From: Pirellulales bacterium
GTDB lineage: Bacteria; Planctomycetota; Planctomycetia; Pirellulales; JAICIG01
Length of the DNA stretch: 64,000 bases
Direction: 5' to 3'
Assembly (NCBI GenBank): GCA_035532215.1
Contig: DATKRK010000301.1
Coordinates: 1,181-65,180 of the forward strand
Position numbers and translations under genes: made by a program. The notes beneath the pieces are model-generated. The model had not been told where the DNA came from. It was given only the letters and a program-made list of their open reading frames with translations, and searched no databases. This document shows, in pieces, positions 1,579-49,528 of this stretch (positions are counted from its first letter, which is position 1; every line of letters starts with the position of its first letter).

Positions 1579-1590
1579 GATCGGAATCGA

Positions 1591-2325: not shown

Positions 2326-2329
2326 TGAG

Positions 2330-21290: not shown

Positions 21291-21326
21291 AACCAGTAGC
21301 CCAGGTTCTGCGAGGACATATACACC

Positions 21327-22250: not shown

Positions 22251-22281
22251 TCGTCGTACGGTCGGAAGTGCTTCATCTACA

Positions 22282-25019: not shown

Positions 25020-25141
25020 ATATATCTTATCGGAATGCAATTGCTTTTCGATTGACGCGAATGCACTTCGAACGAGTTTGCCTTGATACACTTCACTTTG
25101 AAATGAACATGCCGCGCGGCTCAGCCCAAACGTAAACTGAT

Positions 25142-26449: not shown

Positions 26450-26452
26450 GTT

Positions 26453-27127: not shown

Positions 27128-27196
27128 GAGGCCGTAACAAAACCCTCCGGGAGCCCTGGGAAAGCTGGGTAAACATCCGGTTTTGTTACGGCCTCT
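27127..27196. terminator. 70-nt long hairpin immediately after the methyltransferase stop
   Basis: agaggccgtaacaaaacc (27127-27144) pairs perfectly with ggttttgttacggcctct (27179-27196). There is no T-tract, so terminator function is uncertain. Confidence 0.45.
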
Positions 27197-27344
27197 AAGG
27201 GTTGAGCGTCCTTCCAATCTCGACGCTAATCTTCACGTGATTGCCGCCGCCTTCGAACGCGTCGGGATGGGCGGTAGTGGCTTATATCGGCTGCGCTGAG
27301 CGTCGCTAGGCCAATTAGGGGGTGTTAGATCTTCGCTGCTACGG

Positions 27345-28262
27345 ATGCGATTGCTCAAACAGTTCGTGCGTAAGGCGTACGCTGGCACGACCCTTCGATT
27401 TGGGGGTGGCTTGGGAGACCAGCTTCTGTGCACCACGGTCGCGCATGAGCTTTCGGTGCGAGGCCACGGGCGGATTTGGATCCTTTCGGAACATCCAGAA
27501 ATCTTCCGAGGAAATCCCGCTGTTACGGGAAGCGTCCCTCCAAAGAGTATTCGAGCAGGGGTAGTTGAGAAGCTCACGGGTTATGAACGTTCATTTTATT
27601 TGCAGTATGATATGCGCGATGTGCGAGCGGATGTATCGTGCCCGCCGACCGAACACATAATTGCAACTATGTGTCGGCAGGCGGGGGTTAGAGGTGATGT
27701 TAGGATCCGACCTTATCTATTCCTAAACAAGTCGGAAATAGCTGTTGCCGGATCCTACCGTGGATATTTGGCAATTCAGAGCAGCGGATTGAGAGCTAGG
27801 CACCCGATTCCGAACAAAGAATGGTATCCAGACCGATTTGCGGAGGTAGCTAAAACGTTGTTAAAGCGCCGCGATATAGTGCAGATCGGATCCGCTTCCG
27901 ACCCGGCCGTGCCTTGCTCAATTGATTTGCGGGGAAAGACGAGTATTCGAGAGTTGGCAGCGGTGCTGGCTAACGCGAGACTGTTGGTCGGTCTGGTAGG
28001 CTTTCCAATGCACTTGGCTAGGGCGGTTGGCTGCCCTGCGGTTGTTGTATATGGTGGCCGCGAGAGACCGGACCAGTCCGGATATTCGTGTAATGTCAAT
28101 CTCTACAACGCGGTACCGTGTGCCCCATGCTGGGCTTACTCGCGGTGTGATTATGAGCGAAGGTGTATGGCCGAGATTCAACCGTCGGACGTTTTGGCCG
28201 GCGTTGCTGCATTGCTCGAGCGCCCCACGGGCGAGTTGGCGTGTGACATAGTGCAATTGTGA
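27345..28262 (+). CDS. glycosyltransferase family 9 (heptosyltransferase-like)
   Basis: C-terminal pattern LLVGLVGFPMHLARAVGCPAVVVYGGRERPDQSGY...NAVPCAPCW, the GT9 donor-domain signature with the terminal C-x-P-C. Confidence 0.75.
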   Translation: MRLLKQFVRKAYAGTTLRFGGGLGDQLLCTTVAHELSVRGHGRIWILSEHPEIFRGNPAVTGSVPPKSIRAGVVEKLTGYERSFYLQYDMRDVRADVSCPPTEHIIATMCRQAGVRGDVRIRPYLFLNKSEIAVAGSYRGYLAIQSSGLRARHPIPNKEWYPDRFAEVAKTLLKRRDIVQIGSASDPAVPCSIDLRGKTSIRELAAVLANARLLVGLVGFPMHLARAVGCPAVVVYGGRERPDQSGYSCNVNLYNAVPCAPCWAYSRCDYERRCMAEIQPSDVLAGVAALLERPTGELACDIVQL

Positions 28263-29422
28263 GCCACAGAAACGGTACTGCGTATTTGGTCATGAATTGG
28301 TACTTTCTCTATCGGGGACGGTCGACGCCCAGCGGCGGCCACAAGCAAGTCCGGCTGACGGTTGAGCTACTGAACGAATTAGGCGTGCGCGCAGAGTTGC
28401 TGGTCGACGGAGAGATGGCCGATCAGCAGCTTTACGGTCTGGATACGCCGGTGGCTCCCTTCGGTTTCGCGGAGGCCGCTCGTAGAGTTCAGCCGGACGA
28501 CGTCGTGGTTTTCCCTGAAGCAAACTTGCAGCGGTACATTGAGGCGTCTGCAACGTGGGTCTGTCGAAAGGCGGTGACGAATCAAAATGCGTTTTATGCG
28601 ATCCGCAATCGCATTCCGGGAGGATACCGCCAGGCTGGCGTTGAATTCGCCATCGCGAATTCTCGATTCGTGTCGGATGTGACCGCTAGCTATCTGGGCC
28701 TGGCGCCAGAGCGCGTGTTTCTTGTGCCGCATTGGATTGTGCGCGGGCCGTTCGTGCCTGCCGAAGTTGATGGCGAGAAGCGACGCCTGGCAGTGTGCTA
28801 CATGCCGCGCAAGCTGCCGGATATTGTCCGCCGGGTGCGCGAAGCGGTGCAAGAAACAGAGCCCGACGTGCCCTGGGTGGAAATCGATGGCATGCCCGAG
28901 AACGAGGTGGCCCGTTGCTTCAAGACGAACGCCATCTTGTTCTCGTCGCAGGACCAAGAGGGCTGTCCGCTGCCGGCCCTTGAAGCGATGGCCTGCAACT
29001 GCATCATCGCCGGATTTCGCGGGACAGCGAACTTCCCGCATCCTTACGCCACGGGCGAGAACGGGTTTTGGGCTGCTGATCGTTCGGTTTCCGAAGGGGT
29101 CGCCAAGGTGTTGGATGCCATTCGGACCGTGCGAGAGAAGAGTGCGGAATTTGAAAAAGCAAGGGCCGCAGGCCGGTCGACGGTTCGGGCATTTTCCCAC
29201 GCGGCCGTCAGCGCAGCGCTCTCGGAGATGGTGGATGTCGTGACGCAGCAATCCTATGCCGAGCGGCAGATTTCGCCCGCTCCGTTGGATTGGAAGAGCC
29301 GCGCGGGCGTCCGACGGCTGATGCTTGGCGACAGCTATGCGGATTGGCTCGCCAGGACGCGGGCGAAGCTAAGCAGAATCCTTCGGGGGCCCAGCGGCGC
29401 CCGCGAAGAAAGGGTCGTTTGA
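28259..29422 (+). CDS. glycosyltransferase, GT-B fold (GT4-like)
   Basis: FSSQDQEGCPLPALEAMACNCIIAGF is the E-x7-E region. GTG 28259 overlaps the upstream stop (GTGA); ATG 28292 is an alternative. Confidence 0.65.
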   Translation: MSHRNGTAYLVMNWYFLYRGRSTPSGGHKQVRLTVELLNELGVRAELLVDGEMADQQLYGLDTPVAPFGFAEAARRVQPDDVVVFPEANLQRYIEASATWVCRKAVTNQNAFYAIRNRIPGGYRQAGVEFAIANSRFVSDVTASYLGLAPERVFLVPHWIVRGPFVPAEVDGEKRRLAVCYMPRKLPDIVRRVREAVQETEPDVPWVEIDGMPENEVARCFKTNAILFSSQDQEGCPLPALEAMACNCIIAGFRGTANFPHPYATGENGFWAADRSVSEGVAKVLDAIRTVREKSAEFEKARAAGRSTVRAFSHAAVSAALSEMVDVVTQQSYAERQISPAPLDWKSRAGVRRLMLGDSYADWLARTRAKLSRILRGPSGAREERVV

Positions 29423-29430
29423 GAGGGATT

Positions 29431-30267
29431 ATGGAACCGCAAGTCCTTCCTATTTTGATTAAGACCTGGGCCGGTCGGCAGCGGCACGACTTCCGCTATA
29501 TCCGCCGGAGTTTGCCGAGCCTGTTGGCGAGCGCCCTGCCGGAGGGCGCGCGCGTCGTGATTGTCAACGATCAAAGCACCGACCCGCGGCTGGAGCCGTT
29601 TCTGAAACAGTTGGCGGCTGGCGACGCAAGGGTCGAGTTGTGGACGAATCCGGAGCGGATGGGGCCGAACCGGGGCCAAGCCTACAACTTTCCGCGGATC
29701 TTGGAACGCTTTCCCAATGCCAAGCTCTTCGGCCTGTGCGACGACGACATCGTCTACCACCCGGGCTGGCTACAGCGGCTGGTGCGCGTGTCGGAGGAGG
29801 CCGCGGAGGCAGGATTGAGCGGCATTTTCAGCGCGATCAACTTTCCCACTCGGCCGTGCTACGCGTCCGTGCAGTTGCCGACGAGCGAGGTGCTGCTGAA
29901 AGAGCGGCAGGCTGCGTTCAATTGGTTGGTGCCGCGCGACATCTACGAACGGGTGGGGCCGTTTCGCGACGCCGGGGTGGCATTCGATACGGACTACGCC
30001 AACCGGATGGCGCCGCTGGGAATACCGGTCATCTGCCTGAAGCCCAGCTTCGTGCAAAACATCGGTTACCTGGGAGCGTACCAGTCCGACAACAGCCACA
30101 CCGCCAGGGACTACGTTGGCAATGTCGGGTGGTATCTCCGGGCCCACTCGATGGCTTGGACGATGCGCGGGTATGCTGCCCGGCTGGCGCGCGGGGCGAC
30201 GCGCCGCGTTAGTCGGATCGCGCGGGCCTACGCGAGGCCCGCCGAAAGGGCCTCCGGAGGCGAATAA
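29431..30267 (+). CDS. glycosyltransferase, GT-A fold (GT2-like)
   Basis: VVIVNDQSTDPRLEPFL and the DxD-like GLCDDDIVYHPGW. The start was moved to ATG 29431, after the upstream stop. Confidence 0.6.
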   Translation: MEPQVLPILIKTWAGRQRHDFRYIRRSLPSLLASALPEGARVVIVNDQSTDPRLEPFLKQLAAGDARVELWTNPERMGPNRGQAYNFPRILERFPNAKLFGLCDDDIVYHPGWLQRLVRVSEEAAEAGLSGIFSAINFPTRPCYASVQLPTSEVLLKERQAAFNWLVPRDIYERVGPFRDAGVAFDTDYANRMAPLGIPVICLKPSFVQNIGYLGAYQSDNSHTARDYVGNVGWYLRAHSMAWTMRGYAARLARGATRRVSRIARAYARPAERASGGE

Positions 30268-30325
30268 CCGCGCCGTGCGGAATTCGCCCACAGGCGCGGC
30301 GCGAGCTCGGATTTAGGAAAACGCA

Positions 30326-31174
30326 ATGGTCATTGAAAAAGACGAGATTTCCCGCTGGTTCCCGGATACGGTTTATTACAGGCAGCACGCCGAGCGGCTG
30401 GCCTATTCCTTTTCTCGCTTGCCGGCGTTGAAGCCTGGGTTCAGTTGCCTGAGCATTGGGTCATGGGGGGCCGAATCGCCGTTGCTGACGAATGTGCTGG
30501 GGGCGGAGCGCGTCGTTTGCGTGCGGGCGCCGGACCAGGGCGTTCCGCGTCGCGAGCGACGAATCATTCAAGCGCCCAACGCGTTGGGCGAGTGCGAGGC
30601 GGAACTGCACGCATTGAACCTCGAGACCGAGCCGTTGCCAGCCGATCTCGAAGCGTTCGACATGGTCCTGATGTGGGAAGTGATCGAGCATCTCTGCATC
30701 GACCCGGCATTCATGGTTGCACAGGCGATCAAGGCCCTCAAACCGCGCGGCGTGATTTCGATCACGACTCCCAATGCGCTGTGGCACGTCTACACGACGG
30801 CCCAACTTTTCGGCGTCAACGCGCTGGGCCTGAAATTGCAACATCACAAGCCCTTTGCCACTCATTGGAGACTGTACTCTCCCGCTGAGGTCGCCGAACT
30901 GACTGAAAGGATGGGTTGCGAGCTTGGCTGCGTGGATAGCTTTTTGAACGAGGCGCCGTTTTCGCTCAAATCGCGCATCCTGCAACATGCGCTGCAGTTC
31001 ATGCGGCGCAAATCCGGGAACGGACGATGTTCGTTTGGACAATTCGTCTACGTGCTTGCCGAAAAGCATCGGGATGCCGAGATTTACCGTCCCCAGTGGC
31101 TGTATCCCAGGACGGGCGACGAGGGCGGGCAAGTCCACCTCCGTCAGCATGCGCCTGCCGTGACAATCGCCTGA
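30326..31174 (+). CDS. class I SAM-dependent methyltransferase
   Basis: CLSIGSWGAESP (motif I-like), FDMVLMWEVIEHL, LKPRGVISITTPN. Confidence 0.75.
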   Translation: MVIEKDEISRWFPDTVYYRQHAERLAYSFSRLPALKPGFSCLSIGSWGAESPLLTNVLGAERVVCVRAPDQGVPRRERRIIQAPNALGECEAELHALNLETEPLPADLEAFDMVLMWEVIEHLCIDPAFMVAQAIKALKPRGVISITTPNALWHVYTTAQLFGVNALGLKLQHHKPFATHWRLYSPAEVAELTERMGCELGCVDSFLNEAPFSLKSRILQHALQFMRRKSGNGRCSFGQFVYVLAEKHRDAEIYRPQWLYPRTGDEGGQVHLRQHAPAVTIA

Positions 31175-31178
31175 ACGT

Positions 31179-32264
31179 ATGGTTTCTCCGCGAGAACTTG
31201 TTCGCAATGCTTTGTTCGCTTTCGTGCGAAAAATTTCCCGCACCCAGGACGCGAGAGAGATGGCGTGCCAGACGCTCTCTGGGCTGCTCGATGGGCGGCC
31301 GAGGCTGGCAGAGCGAAACGGGCGAGTGCTGTTGACGCAATTGCCATACGACGACCTCGGCCGTGCGACCGAAGGCCAGGCGGCGAATCAGCGCGACGAC
31401 GTTGTGTTCATCACGGCGCGGTTCCGCAGCGGCTCGACGCTGTTGTGGAACCTGTTTCGCAACGTGCCCGGCTGCACGGCTTATTACGAGCCGTTCAACG
31501 AGCGGCGTTGGTTCGACCCCGATGCTCGCGGCAATCGGATTGACCGCACGCACAAACAGGTCGAGGAGTATTGGCGCGAATACGATGGCCTGGACGAACT
31601 AGGCCGCTATTACCGCGAAGCGTGGATCGACAAGAACTTGCTGATGGAAGCCGATTTTTGGGCGCCGGAGATGAAGCGTTACATCGAGTTGCTCATCGAA
31701 CGCGCGCCCGGCCGGCCGGTGCTGCAATTCAACCGCGTCGATTTCCGGCTGCCCTGGCTGCGACGCCATTTTCCCAACGCCAAGTTCATCCATTTGTACC
31801 GGCACCCTCGCGATGAATGGTGTTCGACGTTGATGGGCATTAGGTGCTTTCCGAAGGACGCATCGCCGGCGGAATTCAAGAAGCACGACAAATTCTATTT
31901 GCTGCGGTGGGCGCACGACTTGAAGTTCCATTTTCCGTTCCTGGAGCAGGCGCTCGAGCGGCACCCCTACGAGGCGTTTTATTACATCTGGCGGCTGTCG
32001 TACCTTTATGGCACGGCTTACGCCAATCACTCGATCTGTTTCGAACGGCTCGTCGAGGAGCCGGACGAGGAATTGACGAAATTGCTGGGGTTTACCAAGA
32101 TCGACGCATCATGCCACGACGCCCTGCGCCGCGTGATCGAAAGGCCGCGGATCGGGCAGTGGCGGGATTACGCCGATGATGCGTGGTTCCGCAATATCGA
32201 AGCGCGCTGTGAAGCGGTATTGCAGGAATTCTTGAACCGGGAGGCCGTGTGCGCCCAACGGTGA
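31179..32264 (+). CDS. sulfotransferase-family protein (PAPS-dependent)
   Basis: 5'-PSB-like loop VVFITARFRSGSTLLWN and 3'-PB-like FIHLYRHPRDEWCS. Confidence 0.75.
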   Translation: MVSPRELVRNALFAFVRKISRTQDAREMACQTLSGLLDGRPRLAERNGRVLLTQLPYDDLGRATEGQAANQRDDVVFITARFRSGSTLLWNLFRNVPGCTAYYEPFNERRWFDPDARGNRIDRTHKQVEEYWREYDGLDELGRYYREAWIDKNLLMEADFWAPEMKRYIELLIERAPGRPVLQFNRVDFRLPWLRRHFPNAKFIHLYRHPRDEWCSTLMGIRCFPKDASPAEFKKHDKFYLLRWAHDLKFHFPFLEQALERHPYEAFYYIWRLSYLYGTAYANHSICFERLVEEPDEELTKLLGFTKIDASCHDALRRVIERPRIGQWRDYADDAWFRNIEARCEAVLQEFLNREAVCAQR

Positions 32265-33484
32265 AGGCGATCCGGTCCGTCGCCAGGTTAATTGGGATCG
32301 TTGCGGCGGCGGCGCTCAAGGCCGCGCGTGCTTTGCTATGCGGCGACCGCGAAGCCGCCGCCATGCACGTTCGCGTGCTGACGCTGGCGCTGCTCGACGA
32401 TGCGTCGCAGGCGCTGGTCCGCGCGCAGCGAACGTTCTTTGGCCCGCTGCGGCCGGACGAGATCGATCGCATTTTGATCGTCAAGCTCGACCGGATCGGT
32501 GATATGGTGACGACCACGCCGGTGTTCGATGCGCTGCGAGCAAAGTTCCCCTCGGCCCGGCTCGATATCGTCGCTCATCCGGCGCCGCTGTCATTGCTGG
32601 CCGACGACGAACGGATCGGCCAGCGGATCGCTTACCGTTCGTGGCTTTATCATCCGCTCGCCATCCTGCCGCCGGGACCGCGCACCTGGGGGCTGGTGCT
32701 GCGGCTGATGTGGCGCAGGTATCCGCTCGTAGTCTGTTTGCGGGGCTCGTTTTCCTTCCTGCCGCTCGGCCTGGTCTCGCGGATGACGGCCACGAAGTTC
32801 ATCGAGGGCGAGCCAGTGATTCGGCGGTACTTGCGCTCGATCGAAGAACTGCTCGGCCCGCTGAGTGATCCGCCGCCGCGGCTGCGCGTATCGGCGGAGA
32901 ATCGCCGCTTCGCCGCGGAATTGTTCGCCGGCGGCGAGGCCGACGGCCCGCGGGTCGCGATCCACGCCACTGCCAGCTCGCAGGCCAAAATGTGGCCAGC
33001 CGAGCGGTTCTCCGCGCTGGCTGACGCGTTGCGGGACGAGCATGGCGCGGCGGTACACTTCCTGGGCGCCCCGAGCGATCGGGGCGCGCTGGATGCCATT
33101 GCCCGGCACGCGCGGCACGAGCATGCCTACCATATGTCGCTCAGCCTACCGCAGGTGGCGGCCGTGATTGAAGCTGCGGACGCATTCATCGGCAACGACT
33201 CGGGATTGGCCCACATAGCCGCCGCCGTGGGCACGAGGATGGCGGTGATCTGGGGCGCCCCGAATTTGAGCATGGCTCGCCCCAGGGCCGACGAGCAAAC
33301 TTGTACTATCCTTTATCACGACCTGCCTTGCCGGCAAGGCTGTCCAGAGTTCCGCTGTAACAATCCGAACCGGCTCGAGTGTTTGCTGAGGACGGAAGTC
33401 TTGGATGTGTTCGGTGCGGTCTCCGAACTGCTGGCTCGCGGGGCCGAAGCGACAGAGAAAGAAGCATGCAGCCGGCCGACCTGA
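32249..33484 (+). CDS. glycosyltransferase family 9 (heptosyltransferase-like)
   Basis: ILIVKLDRIGDMVTTTPVFDALRAKFP (GT9 N-domain) and FIGNDSGLAHIAAAVGTRMAVIWG (GT9 C-domain). The GTG start is uncertain. Confidence 0.85.
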   Translation: MRPTVKAIRSVARLIGIVAAAALKAARALLCGDREAAAMHVRVLTLALLDDASQALVRAQRTFFGPLRPDEIDRILIVKLDRIGDMVTTTPVFDALRAKFPSARLDIVAHPAPLSLLADDERIGQRIAYRSWLYHPLAILPPGPRTWGLVLRLMWRRYPLVVCLRGSFSFLPLGLVSRMTATKFIEGEPVIRRYLRSIEELLGPLSDPPPRLRVSAENRRFAAELFAGGEADGPRVAIHATASSQAKMWPAERFSALADALRDEHGAAVHFLGAPSDRGALDAIARHARHEHAYHMSLSLPQVAAVIEAADAFIGNDSGLAHIAAAVGTRMAVIWGAPNLSMARPRADEQTCTILYHDLPCRQGCPEFRCNNPNRLECLLRTEVLDVFGAVSELLARGAEATEKEACSRPT

Positions 33485-34929
33485 GCCGAGTTCGTACGAT
33501 TCCGCTGGAGACGCGGGCCAACAAAGTCGCGCTGGAGCGTTTCGCGCGTCCGCCGCGCGCGGGGGCTTCCTTCGCCGACTTTGCCGCATCGCTGCCCGCG
33601 ATCTTGGCGGGAGAAGAATTCCGCCAGGTCGTCCAAGCGATCACGGCAGCCTGCCGACGCCGGCGGCCCGTGATTCTGGCCATGGGCGCCCACGTCATCA
33701 AGTGCGGGCTGAACCCGGTGGTGATCGACTTGATGCGGCGAGGCGTCGTGACTGGCTTAGTGCTGAACGGTTCAGGGGCGATCCACGACTTCGAGATCGC
33801 GTTGGCGGGCGAGACTTCGGAAGATGTGGCCGCGGGGCTGCGAGACGGAACGTTTGGCATGGTCCGAGAGACGGGCCAGTTGATGAACGAAGGGATCAAC
33901 TGCGTGAAGCAATCGCCCGAGAGTGGGCTGGGGATGCTTCTGGGCCAGCAGTTGGAAGCCATTGGCGCGCCCAATCAGGACCAGAGCCTGCTGGCGATGG
34001 GGAGAAAGTTGGGCGTGCCTGTCACTGTCCACGTGGCGATCGGCGCCGACATCATCCACATGCACCCTTCGGCCGACGGGGCGGCGATCGGCCAAGCCAC
34101 GTTCAACGACTTCCGCATCCTATGCGCTGAGCTAGGCGAGCTATCGGGCGGGGCGTATCTGAACGTCGGCTCGGCAGTCGTTTTGCCCGAAGTGTTTTTG
34201 AAGGCGTTCACGGTGGCCCAGAACTTGGGCGCGGACCTGCACGACTTCACGACCGTCAACATGGACATGATTGCCCACTATCGGCCAGGTGAAAACGTTG
34301 TGCGGCGGTTGGCGCCGATCGGGGGCGGGAGCTACACGCTGCTCGGGCGGCACGAGTTCATGGTTCCGCTGCTGGCTCAAAGCATCGTCGAGTCACTGGC
34401 GGATGATGCGGTCGATTCGGCGGCGGCGCCCTCGGGCTCTGGCGGCAAGCTTGTCGGTTTGGATGAGTTGTTGCGGCTGCGCAACGACTGGCGGAGACAG
34501 GGCCGCCGGGTTGTTTGGACGAATGGCTGCTTCGACTTGTTCCATGTCGGCCACCTCCGCAACTTGCAAGCGGCGCGGCAACACGGCGACGTGCTGGTCG
34601 TAGGCGTCAATAGCGACGCGTCGGTACGGCAACTGAAAGGGCCGGAGCGCCCTGTTATACCGGCAGTGGAGCGTGCAGAAATCATTGCCTCGCTGGGTTG
34701 CGTGGATTGCGTGACAGTGTTTGACGAAGCGACGCCCGAGCCGCTATTGCGGCGACTACAGCCCGATGTTCATTGCAAGGGCGCCGAGTACGCCCCCCCA
34801 TACGGAAAACCGATTCCCGAACGAGAGACGGTCCAGGCGTACGGCGGTCGCATCGAGTTTATCCCGCTGGTGCCTGGCATATCGACTACGGATGTTCTGG
34901 AGCGGATAAGGCTGGAAGCGAAAGACTGA
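33466..34929 (+). CDS. fusion: N-terminal deoxyhypusine-synthase-like domain + C-terminal heptose-1-phosphate adenylyltransferase (RfaE domain II / HldC-like)
   Basis: C-terminus VVWTNGCFDLFHVGHLRNLQAARQHGDVLVVGVNSD carries the HxGH cytidylyltransferase-fold motif. The N-terminal part of about 345 aa (VILAMGAHVIKCGLNPVVIDLMRRGVVTGLVLNGSGAIHDFEIAL) parallels the DHS-family pattern by eye. The start was moved to ATG 33466. Confidence 0.8.
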   Translation: MQPADLSRVRTIPLETRANKVALERFARPPRAGASFADFAASLPAILAGEEFRQVVQAITAACRRRRPVILAMGAHVIKCGLNPVVIDLMRRGVVTGLVLNGSGAIHDFEIALAGETSEDVAAGLRDGTFGMVRETGQLMNEGINCVKQSPESGLGMLLGQQLEAIGAPNQDQSLLAMGRKLGVPVTVHVAIGADIIHMHPSADGAAIGQATFNDFRILCAELGELSGGAYLNVGSAVVLPEVFLKAFTVAQNLGADLHDFTTVNMDMIAHYRPGENVVRRLAPIGGGSYTLLGRHEFMVPLLAQSIVESLADDAVDSAAAPSGSGGKLVGLDELLRLRNDWRRQGRRVVWTNGCFDLFHVGHLRNLQAARQHGDVLVVGVNSDASVRQLKGPERPVIPAVERAEIIASLGCVDCVTVFDEATPEPLLRRLQPDVHCKGAEYAPPYGKPIPERETVQAYGGRIEFIPLVPGISTTDVLERIRLEAKD

Positions 34930-34943
34930 CGGAGTTGAGGTAC

Positions 34944-35921
34944 ATGGCGACCCAAAACGATATTGTCGAGATTGCCGAGCGCTTCCGCGGCCGGCGGATT
35001 CTGGTTGTGGGTGATGTGATGCTAGACGAGTACATATGGGGAAGCGTCGAGCGCATCTCGCCCGAAGCGCCGGTACCGGTGGTTCAGGTGCAGCGGCGGA
35101 GCCACGTTCCCGGTGGGGCCGCAAACACGGCCGCCAACGTGGCCAGTCTTGGCGGTCTACCGATATTGGGCGGCGTAGTAGGCCACGACCTCTACGCGGA
35201 ACTGCTTCGCGAGAAGCTCGGGGAAAGCAGCGTGGAAGCCTCGGGGTTAGTTGCCGACGCGCAGCGCCCCACGACCTGCAAGACGCGCATTGTCGCCCAC
35301 GACCAACAGATCGTGCGAGTCGATTGCGAACAGCGAAATACGTTGCCGGCCGATGTCGAGGAGTCGTTGCTTGCGTGGGCCCGCGAGCAGATCAAAGATG
35401 TGGATGCCTGTATCCTTTCGGACTATGCGAAAGGAGTCGTCTCGCCGCGGCTGGCCCAGGGACTGATCCAGGCGGCCCGCGCCGCCGGCAAGCCGTTGAT
35501 CGTGGACCCTAAGCCCGACGGCTTCGCGAAGTACCGGGGGGCTACGCTGGTTAAGCCTAACCTGCTGGAGGCCGAGCGCGTCTGCAATCGTCGCCTCGAT
35601 GGGGATGAGCAGTTGCGCGCGGCAGGGAGCGCGTTGTGTGAATTGCTGGAGGGTAGCGCTGTGTTGATCACGCTCGGCTCGCGCGGCATGATGCTCTTCC
35701 GCCCCGGTGTGGCGCCGGTCGGCGCGGCGGCCACCCAGCAGCAGGTTTTCGATGTGACCGGCGCCGGTGATACCGTAGCCAGCGCGCTGGCAATGGGTCT
35801 GGCAGCCGGCATTTCGCTCGACGAAGCGGCGCGCCTGGGCAATCGCTGTGCGGGAATCGCCGTCGGCAAGGTGGGGACGAACACGGTTACGCTTGACGAG
35901 TTGCTGGCTGATCATTGTTGA
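34944..35921 (+). CDS. heptose-7-phosphate kinase (RfaE domain I / HldA-like, PfkB family)
   Basis: ILVVGDVMLDEYIWGSVERISPEAPVPVV and the PfkB motif DVTGAGDTVASAL. The start was moved to ATG 34944. Confidence 0.85.
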   Translation: MATQNDIVEIAERFRGRRILVVGDVMLDEYIWGSVERISPEAPVPVVQVQRRSHVPGGAANTAANVASLGGLPILGGVVGHDLYAELLREKLGESSVEASGLVADAQRPTTCKTRIVAHDQQIVRVDCEQRNTLPADVEESLLAWAREQIKDVDACILSDYAKGVVSPRLAQGLIQAARAAGKPLIVDPKPDGFAKYRGATLVKPNLLEAERVCNRRLDGDEQLRAAGSALCELLEGSAVLITLGSRGMMLFRPGVAPVGAAATQQQVFDVTGAGDTVASALAMGLAAGISLDEAARLGNRCAGIAVGKVGTNTVTLDELLADHC

Positions 35922-36649
35922 TCGGGCGTGATTTCATTCGGGACAACCTGGTGATCAAGGGCTTTTTGAAATCGTTTGCTAATGTTGTAGCGACAGTTGT
36001 CGTGCTGCCCTGTTGGGCGGCGTACTGGATTTCGGCGGCCGCGTTAGGACCAAGGGAGGCCTTTGCCGGCTGGTCGCAGGCATTCAGCCTGCTGCCAGGT
36101 CTGTGTGGCGTGTACCTGCGGCGGGCATTTTACAAGTTGGTCTTGGCTGAATGCGGTGACGGAGCCTGCATCACTTTCGGCACGGTCATCTCGCACCCAT
36201 CGGCGCGAATCGGCCGCAACGTCTACGTAGGGGCCTTTTGCGTGCTGGGCGACGTGACGCTGGAAGAAGACGTGTTACTTGGTTCAAATGTGTCGATCAT
36301 TAATGGCGGCCGGCAACATGGAATCGAGCGACTCGACCTTCCCGTGCGCGAACAGCCCGGAGAGTGGCCCCGCGTAACGATCGGCCGCGACAGTTGGATC
36401 GGCGACCGCGCGTTGGTGATGGCCGACGTCGGCCGGCATTGCGTGGTGGCGGCCGGCGCCGTCGTTACCAGGTCCGTGCCGGATTATACGATAGTTGCCG
36501 GTGTACCGGCGCGCATCATCGGCCGTCGTGGCGCTGCGAGCGGCGAACCGAACCCGATTGAGCAGACCGCGGCCATCGTCAACGCACATCAGGTACGTGG
36601 CGAAGTCGCTCCAATCAGCGTCCGGAACATACCACCGGTCAACCGCTGA
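35915..36649 (+). CDS. membrane-anchored hexapeptide-repeat (LbH) acyl/acetyltransferase
   Basis: Two N-terminal hydrophobic helices, then hexapeptide repeats VGAFCVLGDVTLEEDVLLGSNVSIING...IGDRALVMADVGRHCVVAAGAVVTRSVPDYTIVAGVPARIIG. The TTG start is uncertain. Confidence 0.8.
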   Translation: MLIGRDFIRDNLVIKGFLKSFANVVATVVVLPCWAAYWISAAALGPREAFAGWSQAFSLLPGLCGVYLRRAFYKLVLAECGDGACITFGTVISHPSARIGRNVYVGAFCVLGDVTLEEDVLLGSNVSIINGGRQHGIERLDLPVREQPGEWPRVTIGRDSWIGDRALVMADVGRHCVVAAGAVVTRSVPDYTIVAGVPARIIGRRGAASGEPNPIEQTAAIVNAHQVRGEVAPISVRNIPPVNR

Positions 36650-36726
36650 GACAACATAAGAACGCAAGCGCATCGCAAAGGCATGTTCGCCAGCCATAAC
36701 AACTCAAGCACTTTCTGGGATGTATA

Positions 36727-37548
36727 ATGCCTTCTGACCTTGAACAGTTGCGATCGACCCAACTTCGAGAACGGATCGATTCTGAGCGCAGTTATCATGA
36801 CGATTACTACCGAGCCCTCCAAGAGCCTCTCGCCATCCCATTCGATCTGGCAAACAGCACACAACGGCGTCCGCATAACCTGACGTGGGCTTTTTACGAC
36901 GCCATCTTGGAGCACTTCGGCCGCCAACTTAATGGTAAGCGGATCCTAGAAATCGGCTGTGGAACCGGCTCCGTGACACTAAACCTATCAAGGAACGGCG
37001 CTTATGTCGACGCATTCGACGTTAGCGAGGAAGCGGTGGCTATTTGCATGCGGCGCGCTGCTTACAATAACGAGGAGAAGGCAAAGTTCCTCGTATCGGC
37101 CATGGAGGATTTAGATCAGCCTGAGAATTACTATGATGCAGTTGTGGGGCACATGGTGCTGCATCATCTCGATATTTCAGCGGCGATGGAAAAGGTCTAT
37201 CGGTACCTCAAACCGGGCGGCTTGGGCGTTTTCGCCGAATGGAAGGAGTATGCTGTTGTTGACCGTGTGCGACGCACAGCATTGCTACAATGGCTGTTCC
37301 GACCTGGCGGCGTGACGGGGTATGCGACCGAGTACGAGCGAAAACTTTCACGTCGCGACTTTCAGGTGATTCGCCGCCGGTTCCCTAATTTGACCGTCGA
37401 ATGCCGCTACTGTCTGCGAGGAAAAGTCGAATACTTCAGCCCCAGGATCGCGGCAAAGCTCGAACGATTCGACTGTCGGCTCTTGCAACTGCTTCCATGC
37501 CTCAATCCATTCACCGACGGCGCCGTGTTGTGTGTGACAAAAGAGTAA
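36727..37548 (+). CDS. class I SAM-dependent methyltransferase
   Basis: ILEIGCGTGSVTLNLSRNGAYVDAFDVSEEAV, YDAVVGHMVLHHL, LKPGGLGVF. Spot line counts give a locally lower GC of about 48-57%. Confidence 0.85.
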   Translation: MPSDLEQLRSTQLRERIDSERSYHDDYYRALQEPLAIPFDLANSTQRRPHNLTWAFYDAILEHFGRQLNGKRILEIGCGTGSVTLNLSRNGAYVDAFDVSEEAVAICMRRAAYNNEEKAKFLVSAMEDLDQPENYYDAVVGHMVLHHLDISAAMEKVYRYLKPGGLGVFAEWKEYAVVDRVRRTALLQWLFRPGGVTGYATEYERKLSRRDFQVIRRRFPNLTVECRYCLRGKVEYFSPRIAAKLERFDCRLLQLLPCLNPFTDGAVLCVTKE

Positions 37549-37661
37549 GCATCCAGGATTAAATAACCTCCCAAACTCAAATGTCGTTGGGGTCGTAAAC
37601 CAGCCTTGCGAAAGCGGTTGCAGCGGAAGCAGTATGGGGAAGTTATTTAATCCTCGATGCT
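37548..37661. repeat. 114-bp inverted-repeat (MITE/REP-like) intercistronic element, copy 2
   Basis: Arms agcatccaggattaaataacctccc (37548-37572) and gggaagttatttaatcctcgatgct (37637-37661). It starts on the last base of the upstream TAA and ends 12 nt before the next ATG. Its interior is unrelated to copy 1. Confidence 0.8.
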
Positions 37662-37673
37662 AAAGGCCCAATC

Positions 37674-38801
37674 ATGGCATTTAAGGGCAGCGGTACGAAA
37701 GCACTGATCGTTGAACGCATGGCACTACGAACCATCCTAGTTGGCTGCGGTGCGGTGGCCGGGACGCTTTACCGCAAGCCTTTGCAAGAACTGGAACGCC
37801 AGAGCGTGCTGCGCGTCGTCGCGCTCGTTGACAGTAAGCTGGATCACGCCGAGGCAATGCGCTCACGGTTCAGATCGGCCAGCGTCTGGAACGATTTAGC
37901 CCTAGCGTTGCAATCGCAGCAGCCGGACTTGACTCTGATTCTCAGCCCGCCGCATCTGCACTGCGACCAAGCGGTTCTGGCTCTGGAGCACCAAAGCCAT
38001 GTACTTTGTGAAAAGCCGATGGCGGCGTCGACCGCTCAATGCGCCGAAATGATTCGCGTCGCACGGGAAAGCAAGCGTGTTCTAGCTATCGGCATGATCC
38101 GCCGGTTTTTTCCCGCTTTCGCGCAACTCAAAACATTACTCGACACGGGCGAATTGGGAGAGATTCGCTCCTTTTGCTATCGTGAGGGCCGGGTGTTCGA
38201 CTGGGACGTCCGGACGCCCGCGCTCTTCGCCCGACAGCCTTCCGGCGGCGCCGGGCTGTTGTTCGATATCGGCTCGCACGCCCTGGACTACTTGCACTGG
38301 TTGTTTGGCGATTTGAGCGTGGTCTCGTATGCGGACGATGGCTACGACGGCGTGGAGGCCAATGCCTTACTCGAGCTGGCCGCGCCAAGCTGCCGTGGCA
38401 GGATGCAATTATCCTGGGATTCGCCCTTGCTGTGTGAGCTGCGCGTGACCGGCACAAAGGGCGAGGCCATCCTGCGTGTCGATCACCTCGACAAGCTCGC
38501 AGTCAAATGGAAAGGAGATTTCCAGGAAGTCGCGGTTCATCACTGCTATCCCGCAGATGTGCGCAATCCTAGTCTCAAGGCGATTGCACCAAGACTTTAC
38601 GCCGAAAGCATCTACTGTCAGCTAATCCAGCTCGTCCGCGCCATCGAATTGGCAGAGGCGCCCGCCGTGGACGGAGTCCAGGGGCAAGCCTGCGTCAGCC
38701 TCATCGAGGCGGCACGTCGTCGTGCCCGGCCGCTTGACGTTCCCTGGCTCGATCCCGAGCAGCAAGCGATGCATCAAGCTCTTCACTGGACGAACGCATG
38801 A
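37674..38801 (+). CDS. Gfo/Idh/MocA-family NAD(P)-dependent oxidoreductase
   Basis: ILVGCGAVAG...VVALVD (Rossmann) and the family motif VLCEKPMA. ATG 37719 is an alternative start. Confidence 0.85.
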   Translation: MAFKGSGTKALIVERMALRTILVGCGAVAGTLYRKPLQELERQSVLRVVALVDSKLDHAEAMRSRFRSASVWNDLALALQSQQPDLTLILSPPHLHCDQAVLALEHQSHVLCEKPMAASTAQCAEMIRVARESKRVLAIGMIRRFFPAFAQLKTLLDTGELGEIRSFCYREGRVFDWDVRTPALFARQPSGGAGLLFDIGSHALDYLHWLFGDLSVVSYADDGYDGVEANALLELAAPSCRGRMQLSWDSPLLCELRVTGTKGEAILRVDHLDKLAVKWKGDFQEVAVHHCYPADVRNPSLKAIAPRLYAESIYCQLIQLVRAIELAEAPAVDGVQGQACVSLIEAARRRARPLDVPWLDPEQQAMHQALHWTNA

Positions 38802-39919
38802 GCGGGCCGATCGCAGTCATTGGGGCGGGCGGTTTCGTCGGAACTCGCCTCATCGAATCGCTGGTTCTCGACGGCGACGCCGAAATCCGGGCCATCGTCC
38901 GCGCCTATCGGAGCCTGGCCGGCCTGTCGCGGTTCGGCTCCGCCGTCACTTGGAGAATAGCGGACGCAGAGAACCCGGCGGCGCTCGTGCCGGCGCTGCA
39001 AGGGGCAAGCGTGGCGGTCAACCTTACCACCGGTCCGCAGGCCAGTATTGTCCGCTCGACGCGCAGCATCCTGGAGGCGTGCCTGGCTGCCAAAGTCCCG
39101 CGACTCATTCATTTGAGTTCGGCCGTGGTGTTTGGCGAGGTCGCCTCGCCGGCCATCGACGATGACTCCCCGCCGCTGAGGCGCCATTGGATGCCGTACG
39201 CGCGTGCCAAGGCCGCGGCGGAAGTCTGGCTGCGAGAGCGTTTGCACTCGACGCCCTGCCAAGTCGCCGTCTTGCGCCCGGGCATCGTGTGGGGAGTGCG
39301 CTCGCCCCATACGCTGCAGGCTGTCAAGGCGCTTTGGAATAAAAACGCCTATCTCGTGGGCCGCGGAGACGGAATATTCAATTCGATTTATATCGATAAC
39401 TTGGTGGCATGCATCCGCGCCTGCGGCGCGCATCAGGGACCAGTTGCAGGCTTCTACAATATTGCCGATCGAGAGACCATCACCTGGCGCGAGTTTTATG
39501 CAGCACTTGCTTCCTCATTCGATTACGATATGGATCAGATGCCTGCGGTCAGTGGCGAATATTTCCCCTGGTCAACGCGCGCAGTGATCGAATACATCCA
39601 ATTGTTGCCTGGGGTCAATGGGCTCTACCATCGCTTAAAGACCGCTTTGCCGGACGCTCTCAAATCACGCCTCAAGGCTCTATTGGCGGGCAGTTACGCC
39701 TACGGACAGGCGGCGAGCGCCTACCGTCGGAATCCCGTCGTGGATCGCGAGGTCTGGCATCTGCAAAAAGTGAGGCGCAAGCTTCCAACGGCGAAATTCA
39801 GCGAACATTTCGGTTTCACGCCGCCGGTGACGTTTGAGGATGGCGTCCGCCGCACCATGGCCTGGATAGAGTTTCTGGGTTATGAATCCTTGTCCCGTCA
39901 GTTAGTAAGGGCCAGCTAG
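38798..39919 (+). CDS. NAD-dependent epimerase/dehydratase (extended SDR)
   Basis: IAVIGAGGFVGTRLIESL and a YxxxK-type centre (MPYARAKAAAE). Its ATGA overlaps the upstream stop. Confidence 0.85.
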   Translation: MSGPIAVIGAGGFVGTRLIESLVLDGDAEIRAIVRAYRSLAGLSRFGSAVTWRIADAENPAALVPALQGASVAVNLTTGPQASIVRSTRSILEACLAAKVPRLIHLSSAVVFGEVASPAIDDDSPPLRRHWMPYARAKAAAEVWLRERLHSTPCQVAVLRPGIVWGVRSPHTLQAVKALWNKNAYLVGRGDGIFNSIYIDNLVACIRACGAHQGPVAGFYNIADRETITWREFYAALASSFDYDMDQMPAVSGEYFPWSTRAVIEYIQLLPGVNGLYHRLKTALPDALKSRLKALLAGSYAYGQAASAYRRNPVVDREVWHLQKVRRKLPTAKFSEHFGFTPPVTFEDGVRRTMAWIEFLGYESLSRQLVRAS

Positions 39920-49524: not shown

Positions 49525-49528
49525 GCAC

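Follow-up and report, generated by a model that had tools for sequence, protein, structure and literature searches.

We propose, with a probability of roughly 0.6, that genes 30326-36649 of a 64,000-nucleotide stretch of Pirellulales DNA (the whole stretch analysed, hereafter the window) form a co-transcribed cytoplasmic cassette, which builds and decorates a side residue in an exosortase-type polysaccharide locus that also has a Wzm/Wzt export module. All six genes lie on the plus strand with spacings of +4, -16, -19, +14 and -7 nt, which fits translational coupling and the single operon assumed in the first-pass annotation; a promoter and terminator scan gave signals at background level only. 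Their GC content is 0.59-0.66 and their GC3 0.70-0.79. All genes named in that annotation were found on the plus strand at or near the positions it gave, with domain profiles in agreement, and its acetyl-, methyl- and carbamoyltransferase and AsnB-type calls (including 26453, 36727, 50496 and 41260) hold at the domain level. The block and the modification genes outside it are as follows.

30326-31174 (+): class I SAM-dependent methyltransferase, 282 aa (Methyltransf_23 36.9 bits, cut-off 27)
31179-32264 (+): soluble PAPS-type sulfotransferase, 361 aa, N-terminal extension helical (Sulfotransfer_3 53.3 bits, cut-off 27)
32249-33484 (+): GT9-family glycosyltransferase, 411 aa, candidate heptosyltransferase (Glyco_transf_9 96.3 bits)
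33475-34380 (+): GSU2086-family domain, N-terminal ~300 aa of gene 33466-34929 (NF052581 392 bits, cut-off 250)
34480-34929 (+): HldC-type heptose-1-phosphate adenylyltransferase domain, C-terminal part of the same gene (TIGR02199, CTP_transf_like)
34944-35921 (+): HldA heptose-7-phosphate kinase (TIGR02198 371 bits, cut-off 345; PfkB 160 bits)
35915-36649 (+): left-handed beta-helix (hexapeptide) acyltransferase with one N-terminal hydrophobic anchor (Hexapep 48 bits)
36727-37548 (+): class I SAM methyltransferase, 273 aa (Methyltransf_25 75 bits; Methyltransf_11 72 bits)
26453-27127 (+): Methyltransf_24 methyltransferase, candidate chain-end capping enzyme (Methyltransf_24 35.8 bits)
50496-52370 (+): NodU/CmcH-family carbamoyltransferase (Carbam_trans_N 123.5 bits; Carbam_trans_C 193.5 bits)

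The sulfotransferase and the other modification enzymes

The sulfotransferase call had been offered together with its own refutation test, a profile search and an alignment of catalytic residues. The protein scores well above the Sulfotransfer_3 cut-off, and stays below that of Sulfotransfer_1 (18.6 bits, cut-off 22). It contains the strings RFRSGSTLL and YRHPRDEW, and residues R81-F82-R83-G85-S86-T87 and R208-P210-R211-W214-S216 are invariant in an alignment of 30 homologues. These 5'-PSB and 3'-PB motifs align with their counterparts in the CurM sulfotransferase and in Teg12/Teg14. In a Foldseek search with the AlphaFold (AF2) model (pLDDT 83.6), all of the top 50 PDB fold matches are sulfotransferases, so that the call stands on profile, motif and fold. 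Neither a signal peptide nor a hydrophobic segment was detected in the protein. Because residues 1-27 are conserved among homologues, we prefer the start at 31179 over the deposited start, M28. No PAPS-synthesis genes are present in the window.

Could the target of this enzyme be something other than a glycan, for instance a lipid, a small molecule or tyrosine residues in a PEP-CTERM protein that is secreted? The four best Foldseek matches are tyrosylprotein sulfotransferases, NCBIfam offers no curated model for the family, and the literature searched yielded no characterised member. However, the E-values of tyrosylprotein sulfotransferases, cytosolic SULTs, Stf and the CurM sulfotransferase against the model all lie within about one order of magnitude, and the fold therefore does not discriminate between substrates. 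Moreover, the gene is surrounded by glycosyltransferases in 80 species, usually at most 300 nt from a GT4, Wzy_C or GT2 gene, and here it overlaps the start of the GT9 gene by 16 nt. We thus regard a non-glycan target as very unlikely.

The methyltransferase that opens the block stops 4 nt ahead of the sulfotransferase start; it has a degenerate motif I (LSIGSWGAE) and no predicted membrane segment. The acyltransferase at the other end carries a single N-terminal hydrophobic stretch (aa 12-44), in keeping with the membrane anchor described earlier, and its best named models are sugar or polysaccharide O-acetyltransferases, all below their cut-offs. The methyltransferase at 36727-37548 has lower GC (0.538) and GC3 (0.595) than the genes of the block, and that at 26453-27127, which begins 3 nt past wzt, likewise has a low GC content (0.524).

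Heptose genes and the GSU2086-HldC fusion

Profiles for Glyco_transf_9, TIGR02198 and TIGR02199 bear out the reported placement of a GT9 beside genes for ADP-heptose activation. The NCBIfam matches of the GT9 are all LPS heptosyltransferases, yet it falls under the cut-offs of every heptosyltransferase I, II and III equivalog model; its N-terminus is weakly hydrophobic. HldA passes its equivalog cut-off. The HldC domain, which occupies the last ~150 aa of its gene, scores 171.4 bits against TIGR02199, just under the cut-off of 181.5, and 62 bits against CTP_transf_like; its nearest solved structure is 5x9q (E 2e-27). The two activation enzymes named in the first-pass annotation are hence present as HldA and HldC domains, but gene 33466-34929 is a fusion whose GSU2086-family domain had been missed. 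GmhA, GmhB and HldD were not found within the window.

The GSU2086-family domain has no Pfam match. Its AF2 model (pLDDT 86.4, pTM 0.85) points to a deoxyhypusine-synthase-like fold for this uncharacterised family: all top Foldseek matches are deoxyhypusine synthases, with TM-scores of 0.53-0.64 at 12-17% identity. More than 8,000 homologues exist at ~70% identity, and the fusion to HldC recurs in 12 of the 120 top homologues. Elsewhere, the neighbourhoods of the family are enriched in SIS_2 (GmhA-type, 17), PfkB (9), GT9 (6) and HldC (4) among 113 adjacent ORFs. In Geobacter, hldE, GSU2086 and gmhA form an operon, and the three genes have matching Tn-seq phenotypes (PMC5585712). This unexplained domain, tied to heptose genes, is the most interesting by-product of our analysis.

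Locus setting, distribution and export

The surroundings of the block include the following genes.

8176-9219 (+): exosortase, EpsH family (TIGR02602 151 bits, cut-off 105.6)
20211-21290 (+): Wzm-type ABC-2 permease (ABC2_membrane 53 bits; galactan-export Wzm model E 1.6e-17)
21327-22250 (+): polyprenyl-phosphate-sugar synthase-like GT2 (PpgS, AglJ and dolichyl-P-hexose transferase models, E 1e-18 to 1e-24)
22018-23721 (+): GT-C/PMT_2 membrane glycosyltransferase (PMT_2 26.6 bits; multiple hydrophobic segments)
23718-25019 (+): Wzy_C/O-antigen-ligase-like membrane protein (Wzy_C 71 bits)
25142-26449 (+): Wzt, ABC-transporter ATPase carrying a carbohydrate-binding domain at its C-terminus (ABC_tran 84.6 bits; Wzt_C 33.9 bits, cut-off 30.4)
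27345-28262 (+): second, divergent GT9-like glycosyltransferase (Glyco_transf_9 42.7 bits)
41260-43200 (+): XrtA/PEP-CTERM-type AsnB amidotransferase (TIGR03108 726 bits, cut-off 817; Asn_synthase 320 bits)

The exosortase itself (162 bits with the XrtA-specific model, under its cut-off of 208) and exosortase-system markers on both sides of 20211-37548 support the earlier assignment to an exosortase-type EPS locus, as judged from gene content: on the upstream side these are a deacetylase (TIGR03006) and stp1 (TIGR03087), on the downstream side the amidotransferase and FemAB (TIGR03019). The Wzm/Wzt(Wzt_C)/ligase-like module (20211-26449), which adjoins the block, was absent from the first-pass annotation; with it, the locus might produce more than a single glycan. 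The GT2 and GT-C enzymes of the module would act as a pair that attaches a sugar on the non-cytoplasmic side.

For the sulfotransferase family, more than 1,800 homologues were found. A one-genome-per-species collection gave at least 142 matches, spread over Planctomycetota, Acidobacteriota, Verrucomicrobiota, delta- and gammaproteobacteria and other groups, and the family sits mostly inside exosortase-type polysaccharide loci. For 80 species (80 loci), we counted the homologues of window genes that lie up to 10 kb from the sulfotransferase. The commonest neighbours are hallmark genes of exosortase-type loci: GT4s (41-46 loci), AsnB (33), Wzy_C (27), FemAB (25), stp1 (22), PcRGLX (18), the deacetylase (15) and the acetyltransferase (14). 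The order Xrt-Wzc-EpsI-deacetylase-stp1-WzyC-ST (ST, sulfotransferase) recurs in Planctomycetaceae and FemAB-AsnB-GT4-ST in gammaproteobacteria. Carbamoyltransferase homologues (52-53% identity) lie 0.2-5.4 kb from the sulfotransferase in L034 and L058. According to these data, the sulfotransferase is an accessory gene found widely in exosortase-type loci.

Of the 80 loci, just 2 have a GT9 at most 10 kb from the sulfotransferase, and none has HldA or HldC there. In L006, L009, L012, L017 and L031, an acetyltransferase homologue (51-68% identity) follows the sulfotransferase 1.2-2.2 kb further downstream. The order is ST-GT4-acetyltransferase in L009, L012 and L031, and ST-GT9-GSU2086-acetyltransferase in L006, where the GT9 after the sulfotransferase is 56% identical to ours; this indicates that in this lineage the GT9 and heptose-supply genes take the place of the GT4. 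L088 has the order WzyC-Wzt(Wzt_C)-...-GT9-GSU2086-HldC-HldA-Hexapep-AsnB-PcRGLX without a sulfotransferase, and a GT9 also precedes GSU2086-HldC-HldA in L005. The distribution of the sulfotransferase is thus independent of that of the heptose module, the series GT9-GSU2086-HldC-HldA-acetyltransferase recurring with and without the sulfotransferase, and the products of the two therefore need not share a residue, or even a polymer. The view that combining sulfate, carbamoyl and heptose chemistry is unusual did not survive this comparison, given the species matches across several phyla and the module orders recurring in L088 and L006. Because similar clusters occur in many bacteria, a decorated sugar polymer is a solid but fairly ordinary prediction.

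Segment 20211-37548 might be read as an LPS O-polysaccharide/core module rather than as part of the exosortase-type EPS locus, with a heptose-containing chain that is built on undecaprenyl diphosphate, leaves the cytoplasm by way of Wzm/Wzt and is ligated to lipid A-core by a WaaL-like action of the Wzy_C protein. GT9 and ADP-heptose genes are classic LPS inner-core functions, the GT9 matches noted above are in line with this, and Wzm, Wzt with Wzt_C and an O-antigen-ligase-family protein are all present. The Geobacter hldE-GSU2086-gmhA genes are likewise listed among envelope/LPS-related genes (e.g. lptA) in an electrode-growth Tn-seq table (PMC5585712). On the other hand, exosortase markers flank the segment on both sides, the L088 order continues directly into AsnB-PcRGLX, and the Wzy_C protein is matched best by the model of the exosortase-A-associated O-glycosylation ligase (TIGR03097, 137 bits, under its cut-off of 188). 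Both GT9s, including the low-GC gene 27345-28262 (0.545), fall under the LPS equivalog cut-offs, and the window contains no Kdo or lipid A genes. An LPS module is therefore unlikely.

Since a Wzt with a terminal-cap-binding domain lies nearby, some modifications could be chain-end caps and not along-chain decorations. At least one of them (methyl, possibly sulfate) would then be a single non-reducing-end cap, absent from the individual repeats, which ends chain growth and is read by the C-terminal domain of Wzt, as is established for E. coli O8/O9a (PMC9445017, PMC3482155). Wzt_C is also found on the Wzt of the P0137 contig and of L088, the position of methyltransferase 26453-27127 directly behind wzt is suggestive, and between wzm and wzt relatives carry a methyltransferase gene and, in a single instance, a sulfotransferase gene. 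However, profile searches detected no WbdD-like kinase or coiled-coil terminator, and Wzt_C is just 3.5 bits over its Pfam cut-off. In addition, 70 of the 80 sulfotransferase loci have no Wzt within 10 kb, so that the general role of the sulfotransferase family cannot be Wzt-cap formation. We consider such a cap improbable.

We therefore favour the cytoplasmic cassette, which might operate as follows. HldA would phosphorylate D-glycero-D-manno-heptose-7-phosphate and the HldC domain would adenylylate heptose-1-phosphate to ADP-heptose, as their enzyme families suggest, with the isomerase and phosphatase steps necessarily encoded outside the window; the GSU2086 domain possibly performs an NAD-dependent step on heptose or its nucleotide. 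The GT9, judging from its family and the adjacent donor-synthesis genes, would place heptose on a polyprenyl-linked glycan at the inner membrane face. The soluble sulfotransferase, to which family and cofactor motifs assign PAPS, would O-sulfate a sugar of this lipid-linked intermediate, the membrane-tethered hexapeptide transferase would acetylate it with acetyl-CoA and the methyltransferases would methylate it with SAM; enzyme families indicate these chemistries, and acceptors and positions are our inference. As PAPS, acetyl-CoA and SAM are all cytoplasmic, the marks would be added before export, which would proceed either by way of Wzm/Wzt together with the ligase-like protein or via the Wzc-type machinery that belongs to the locus. 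In this scheme all marks may sit on one and the same polymer.

Comparison with known systems

Deletion studies link the xss cluster of Synechocystis sp. PCC 6803, with the sulfotransferases XssA and XssE, to the sulfated EPS synechan (PMC8205485). By family and setting the two systems are alike, as both have Pfam-type PAPS sulfotransferases among glycosyltransferases in an extracellular-polysaccharide cluster; xss, however, is a plasmid-borne cyanobacterial Wzx/Wzy system without exosortase, GT9, ADP-heptose genes or Wzm/Wzt. Pontiella sulfatireligans F21, of the PVC superphylum, produces sulfated exopolymers and has a putative cluster for a sulfated glycosaminoglycan-like EPS (PMC7356697). 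Its gene content is similar in combining a PF13469 sulfotransferase with a methyltransferase, GT2/GT4 and a polyprenyl-phosphate-sugar synthase, whereas it has neither a heptose module nor an exosortase context, and its polymer is mainly N-sulfated.

E. coli O9a/O8 O-antigens are made by an ABC-transporter-dependent route with the terminator WbdD and a carbohydrate-binding domain on Wzt (PMC3482155, PMC9445017). Wzm, Wzt with Wzt_C, methyltransferases and a ligase-family protein stand in one array here as well, but no homologue of the kinase-methyltransferase WbdD was found and the array lies inside an exosortase/Wzc-type locus. The ADP-heptose pathway of the LPS core comprises GmhA, HldA/HldE, GmhB, HldC and HldD, and its GT9 heptosyltransferases are WaaC, WaaF and WaaQ. 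Our locus shares with it an HldA above the equivalog cut-off, an HldC-type domain and a GT9 alongside; it differs in being an EPS-type locus with a GT9 under the LPS equivalog cut-offs, a fused HldC and no GmhA, GmhB or HldD nearby. As in the Geobacter sulfurreducens hldE-GSU2086-gmhA operon (PMC5585712), the GSU2086 family is tied to ADP-heptose genes, although there it stands alone in an envelope/LPS setting, whereas here it is fused to HldC within an EPS locus.

Gene content of the block and identity of the sulfotransferase

All six genes at 30326–36649 pass family HMMs at the coordinates of the first-pass annotation, in the following order:

30326–31174, + strand: Methyltransf_23 methyltransferase (36.9 bits)
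31179–32264, + strand: sulfotransferase, ST (Sulfotransfer_3, 53.3 bits)
32249–33484, + strand: GT9 glycosyltransferase (PF01075, 96.3 bits vs. cut-off 22)
33466–34929, + strand: GSU2086 domain (392 bits) and HldC domain (TIGR02199, 171.4 bits) in one gene
34944–35921, + strand: HldA (TIGR02198, 371.2 bits vs. equivalog cut-off 345)
35915–36649, + strand: Hexapep acyltransferase with one hydrophobic stretch, at the N-terminus

The spacings between consecutive genes are +4, −16, −19, +14 and −7 nt, as is typical where translation of neighbouring genes is coupled. A promoter and terminator consensus scan of 20000–39000 gave no signal over the shuffle background, so that the operon boundaries are drawn from gene spacing. 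The tailoring genes at 26453 and 36727 (methyltransferases) and 27345 (a second GT9-like gene) have low GC (0.52–0.545) and GC3 (0.55–0.60), while the GC3 of the genes around them is 0.65–0.79; this composition suggests that they were acquired more recently.

Our best-supported model, to which we assign a probability of roughly 0.6, is that the block acts as a cytoplasmic tailoring cassette; the figure overlaps with those for the readings weighed below, namely an LPS or O-polysaccharide destination, end caps and a non-glycan substrate. The model builds on established enzyme families, cofactor motifs, coupling and synteny. HldA and the HldC domain would make ADP-heptose, with the other pathway steps encoded elsewhere, GT9 would move the heptose onto a lipid-linked glycan, and PAPS-, acetyl-CoA- and SAM-dependent marks would be put on before export. 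The acceptors and positions of these marks, and their presence on one polymer, are what we infer. The first-pass interpretation, a sulfated, methylated, acetylated and carbamoylated glycan containing heptose, stands as regards enzyme families, motifs and coupling; it erred on the rarity of the combination and on a simple enzyme at 33466–34929, and it overlooked the export module upstream of the block.

The sulfotransferase call had been tied to the Sulfotransfer models and to the catalytic residues. The protein passes Sulfotransfer_3 (cut-off 27) and misses only the sister model Sulfotransfer_1 (18.6 bits, cut-off 22); no curated NCBIfam model matched the family. According to an alignment of 30 homologues (53–66% identical), R81, F82, R83, G85, S86 and T87 of the 5′-phosphosulfate-binding loop ARFRSGSTLLW are invariant, as are R208, P210, R211, W214 and S216 of the 3′-phosphate-binding motif LYRHPRDEWCS (YRHPRDxWCS). 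Three candidates for the catalytic base, E104, E108 and H125, are likewise invariant; E104 is located 21 residues past R83, a spacing like that of the base in tyrosylprotein sulfotransferase. A direct sequence search against PDB chains returned chance-level matches only, and a profile search gave weak ones (E 0.9–2.4), with known sulfotransferases aligned on the correct motifs: the 5′ loop with SPRSGSTLL of the CurM sulfotransferase (4gox), and the 3′ motif with LVRNPRDMLLS of Teg12/Teg14 and LVRHP of the CurM enzyme. It is the fold search that settles the identity. With the AlphaFold (AF2) model (pLDDT 83.6), all of the best 50 PDB matches are sulfotransferases (probability 0.97–1.00, modest TM of 0.30–0.51), spanning tyrosylprotein sulfotransferases, cytosolic SULTs, mycobacterial Stf1/Stf9 and the CurM enzyme. 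Judged by motifs and predicted fold, 31179–32264 thus encodes a genuine PAPS-type sulfotransferase, acceptor aside.

Residues 1–27 are conserved among the homologues, and we therefore prefer the first-pass start, ATG 31179, to the deposited start at M28. The protein lacks any hydrophobic segment and so should act in the cytoplasm, where PAPS is made; no ATP sulfurylase or APS kinase for PAPS supply was found among all large ORFs of the 64-kb window. The window derives from a metagenome-assembled Pirellulales bacterium (Planctomycetota), and the protein is 100% identical to a GenBank entry annotated “MAG TPA: sulfotransferase [Pirellulales bacterium]”, and copies were also found in JGI and Logan assemblies.

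The exosortase-type locus, its relatives and the export module

Between about 8.2 and 54.6 kb nearly every large ORF lies on the + strand and is of polysaccharide-synthesis type. The genes that define the setting are the following (bits; second value, cut-off):

8176–9219, + strand: exosortase, EpsH family (TIGR02602, 151 vs. 105.6)
9350–11650: Wzc-like tyrosine kinase
11660–16048: PrsT-like TPR protein (PrsT model, 202 vs. 312)
16074–16769: EpsI/DUF3485 (45.8)
Also in the locus: priming phosphoglycosyltransferase
Also in the locus: XrtA-system deacetylase (TIGR03006, 361 vs. 276, over cut-off)
Also in the locus: stp1 glycosyltransferase (TIGR03087, 423 vs. 317, over cut-off)
Downstream part: XrtA-associated FemAB protein (TIGR03019, 367 vs. 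260, over cut-off)
Downstream part: XrtA-type AsnB amidotransferase (726 vs. 817)
Downstream part: several GT4s, a carbamoyltransferase and RmlC

The presence of the TIGR02602 exosortase, EpsI and the TIGR03006, TIGR03087 and TIGR03019 proteins bears out the first-pass description of an exosortase locus. The XrtA-specific exosortase model (162 vs. 208 bits), PrsT, the system amidotransferase and the PEP-CTERM motif (19.7 vs. 20.7) are all under cut-off, and by these scores the locus is therefore exosortase-type, yet no strict XrtA equivalog. The borderline C-terminal PEP-CTERM motif belongs to a 344-aa ORF at 5619–6653 (− strand, opposite to the exosortase and 1.5 kb upstream of it); this ORF is a candidate exosortase substrate. 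Further upstream, 3085–4545 (Acg/nitroreductase-like FMN domain) and 4585–5517 (ThiF/E1-like adenylyltransferase) resemble the two halves of the Rv1355c family and are adjacent to each other, downstream of a DevBCA-type ABC exporter (382–3385). Immediately downstream of the polysaccharide locus, a 1,266-aa ORF (55193–58993) has both a PHP phosphoesterase domain and three membrane domains of VanZ-like type.

How common is such a sulfotransferase? In the protein collection, clustered at 90%, more than 1,800 proteins belong to the family, and identity is 53–68% for all of the best 120; a scan of one genome per species yielded 142 confirmed matches. The carriers belong to Planctomycetota, Acidobacteriota, delta- and gammaproteobacteria (Paraglaciecola, Colwellia, Hahella, Alteromonas, Marinobacter, Thalassotalea), Verrucomicrobiota, Nitrospirae and Ca. 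Uabimicrobium, and the family is well conserved across phyla (41–68% identity). Paraglaciecola chathamensis S18K6, Hahella ganghwensis DSM 17046, Colwellia sp. 75C3 and Ca. Uabimicrobium amorphum are examples of cultured carriers. We searched the surroundings of the best 80 of the 142 loci with all window proteins.

Homologues of window proteins within ±10 kb of the sulfotransferase (loci out of 80)
GT4s: 41–46
AsnB amidotransferase: 33
Wzy_C protein: 27
FemAB: 25
stp1: 22
Unnamed protein of ORF 49334–50515: 20
PcRGLX: 18
Deacetylase: 15
Hexapeptide transferase: 14
Wzt: 10
GT9: 2
GSU2086: 1
HldA/HldC: 0

The order Xrt-Wzc-EpsI-deacetylase-stp1-WzyC-ST recurs in Planctomycetaceae, and PcRGLX-GT4-(49334-like)-FemAB-AsnB-GT4-ST in marine gammaproteobacteria. 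These recurrent neighbours and gene orders identify the sulfotransferase, at the level of gene context, as an accessory that is widespread among exosortase-type polysaccharide loci; that it acts on a substrate other than a glycan is, in our estimate, highly unlikely. With a family of this size, this many species-level matches and such recurrent orders, the earlier claim of an unusual combination does not hold. A tie of the sulfotransferase to the GT9/heptose module was ruled out by the counts for GT9 and HldA/HldC.

Two little-known proteins accompany these loci. The 889-aa PcRGLX-like protein (43257–45926), which follows the AsnB amidotransferase and has a RIFT-barrel N-domain and a weak GH127-like match, has homologues close to the sulfotransferase in 18 of the 80 species; they follow AsnB in two relatives' loci (L012, L088) and on a related planctomycete contig from JGI (P0137); it is a conserved, uncharacterised part of such loci. 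The 393-aa protein at 49334–50515 overlaps the carbamoyltransferase start and matched no Pfam or NCBIfam model. Elsewhere its homologues typically lie directly upstream of FemAB (…-49334-like-FemAB-AsnB-GT4-ST) or are paired with a carbamoyltransferase (loci L034, L058).

Upstream of the block lies the export module:

20211–21290: Wzm permease (ABC2_membrane, 53 bits)
Upstream of the block: Wzt ATPase (ABC_tran, 84.6 bits; Wzt_C, 33.9 bits vs. cut-off 30.4)
Upstream of the block: Wzy_C ligase-like protein
26453, 3 nt after wzt: methyltransferase
Upstream of the block: second GT9-like gene, a GT4 and a GT2

Flanked by wzm and the ligase-like gene, 21327–23721 encodes a polyprenyl-phosphate-sugar synthase-like GT2 and then a multi-spanning PMT_2/GT-C protein. 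Elsewhere, a GT2 and GT-C pair serves to attach a sugar to glycans outside the cytoplasm; the pair here has no GtrA-like flippase in sight.

From their domain matches, Wzm and Wzt with its Wzt_C carbohydrate-binding domain make up an ABC-transporter-dependent export set. Because Wzt_C reads a chain-terminating modification in ABC-transporter-dependent O-antigen systems (PMC9445017, PMC3482155), two alternatives have to be weighed. The region could make an LPS-linked or O-polysaccharide glycan, or a separately exported one, as Wzm, Wzt with Wzt_C and the Wzy_C ligase-like protein would allow; an LPS or O-polysaccharide destination seems unlikely to us. Alternatively, some of the marks could be single end caps, a reading that the Wzt_C domain favours and to which we nevertheless give little credence. 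The stand-alone methyltransferases at 26453 (directly after wzt), 30326 and 36727 are options for a chain terminator, and domain searches found no WbdD-like kinase or coiled-coil terminator. Sulfate is unlikely to be a general Wzt export cap, Wzt being near the sulfotransferase in only 10 of the 80 loci. Cytoplasmic tailoring before export is our preferred model.

Heptose supply and the GSU2086 domain

By its equivalog score, HldA belongs to the ADP-heptose pathway, and TIGR02199 is by far the best match of the HldC domain, slightly under the cut-off of 181.5 bits. The scanned large ORFs of the window include no GmhA isomerase, GmhB phosphatase or HldD epimerase, the last being needed for L,D-heptose, and the NCBIfam matches of the SDR at 38798 (E ≤ 1e-5) do not include an HldD model; the three genes may lie elsewhere in the genome. 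GT9 is under the equivalog cut-offs of LPS heptosyltransferases I, II and III and of the autotransporter heptosyltransferase (scores/cut-offs of 88/170, 84.9/134.6, 72.4/185 and 20/200). It adjoins the HldA/HldC genes in the window and also in loci L005 and L088, an adjacency that makes ADP-heptose its candidate donor. Given these GT9 scores and the absence of GmhA, GmhB and HldD from the window, the description of the glycan as heptose-containing draws on family membership and adjacency, and is well motivated.

The heptose module recurs in the relatives' loci. L088 (WzyC-Wzt(Wzt_C)-GT2-GT4-MT-GT4-GT9-GSU2086-HldC-PfkB-Hexapep-AsnB-PcRGLX, MT being a methyltransferase) has the window's architecture without the sulfotransferase. 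GT9, GSU2086, HldC and HldA occur together in L005, next to EpsI, Wzc and EpsH, again in L086, and on the P0137 contig, which adds three sulfotransferases and is a richer version of the window's design. These three differ from one another, and one lies between a ligase-like gene and wzt, along with a GSU2086-HldC fusion and HldA. In the nearest relative (L003/L006), whose sulfotransferase is 68% identical, the order is GT2-ST-GT9-GSU2086-Hexapep with HldA/HldC not nearby, and Gemmataceae and Isosphaeraceae MAGs (L009, L012, L031) have ST-GT4-Hexapep. From these orders we infer a sulfotransferase–glycosyltransferase–acetyltransferase cassette in which, in this Pirellulales lineage, GT9 and the heptose-supply genes would fill the position of GT4.

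The label of ADP-heptose activation enzyme given to 33466–34929 is correct for the last ~150 residues, which are HldC-type, and wrong for residues 33–334 (33475–34380), which match the NCBIfam “GSU2086 family” (392 bits). Pfam gave no match on residues 1–334. A search gave more than 8,000 homologues at about 70% identity, sometimes labelled “deoxyhypusine synthase” by JGI, and the fusion to HldC is present in 12 of the best 120. The domain is modelled confidently (pLDDT 86.4, pTM 0.85), and Foldseek matches the model to deoxyhypusine synthases (E 2e-8 and above, TM 0.53–0.64, 12–17% identity). A profile search of PDB sequences found no relative and no deoxyhypusine synthase. The predicted fold is thus deoxyhypusine-synthase-like, and the domain is not a member of that sequence family.

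The Geobacter sulfurreducens GSU2086 gene lies between hldE and gmhA, and all three have similar Tn-seq scores (PMC5585712); beyond this Tn-seq mention, our searches found no literature on GSU2086, or on deoxyhypusine synthase with heptose. Of the 113 ORFs that flank its homologues across 80 metagenome loci, DUF3108 is the commonest (26), followed by GmhA-type SIS_2 (17), PfkB (9), GT9 (6) and HldC (4). Of 39 informative loci, 10 have HldA downstream at a distance of ≤2.5 kb. These counts indicate that the link between GSU2086 and heptose genes is real, though not universal.

Could the domain replace a known step of the pathway? Substitution for GmhA was ruled out, GmhA-type SIS being the most frequent functionally annotated neighbour and Geobacter having both. 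Replacement of GmhB or HldD was also considered, and here we weighed the fusion of HldC to a HAD domain in L005 and the SDR epimerase just upstream on the P0137 contig. Because the chemistry of the deoxyhypusine synthase fold is NAD-dependent, an oxidation- or epimerisation-type step on heptose is a reasonable guess from the modelled fold. More specifically, we tentatively propose, as a possibility short of even odds, an unrecognised heptose nucleotide-sugar enzyme, probably NAD-dependent, that is either a non-orthologous replacement (e.g. of the 6-epimerase) or the maker of a modified heptose. If so, the heptose of this glycan and that of Geobacter LPS would come from a variant of the pathway that thousands of bacteria share. 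ADP-heptose is an innate-immune agonist as well. As a very large, highly conserved family tied to ADP-heptose genes, GSU2086 is a more novel lead than the block itself.

Sulfated polysaccharides in known systems

Sulfated microbial polymers are relevant to marine carbon and sulfur cycling, as substrates of many planctomycete sulfatases, and are also of interest as heparin-like biomaterials. If our model is right, the surface polymer of this Pirellulales bacterium carries sulfate and heptose, and the sulfotransferase family would serve as a marker of sulfated exopolysaccharides of exosortase type in at least 142 species, with cultivable Paraglaciecola, Colwellia, Hahella, Alteromonas and Marinobacter strains as tractable hosts for tests. 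It would also widen the view, taken in the work on synechan, that sulfated bacterial polysaccharides are essentially cyanobacterial (PMC8205485). Some planctomycete MAGs carry sulfotransferase genes (PMC9723792), and marine bacteria with natively sulfated EPS include a deep-sea hydrothermal-vent isolate with 10% sulfate (PMC2901825); the combination of this sulfotransferase family with exosortase loci was not found in the literature searched. The cyanobacterial EPS cluster for synechan encodes sulfotransferases (PMC8205485), and the PVC bacterium Pontiella has one in its EPS cluster and makes sulfated exopolymers (PMC7356697). The window shares with both a sulfotransferase gene inside an EPS cluster. 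The sulfotransferase-bearing EPS cluster and the GT9/ADP-heptose glycan module both belong to known systems, and the combination is not rare.
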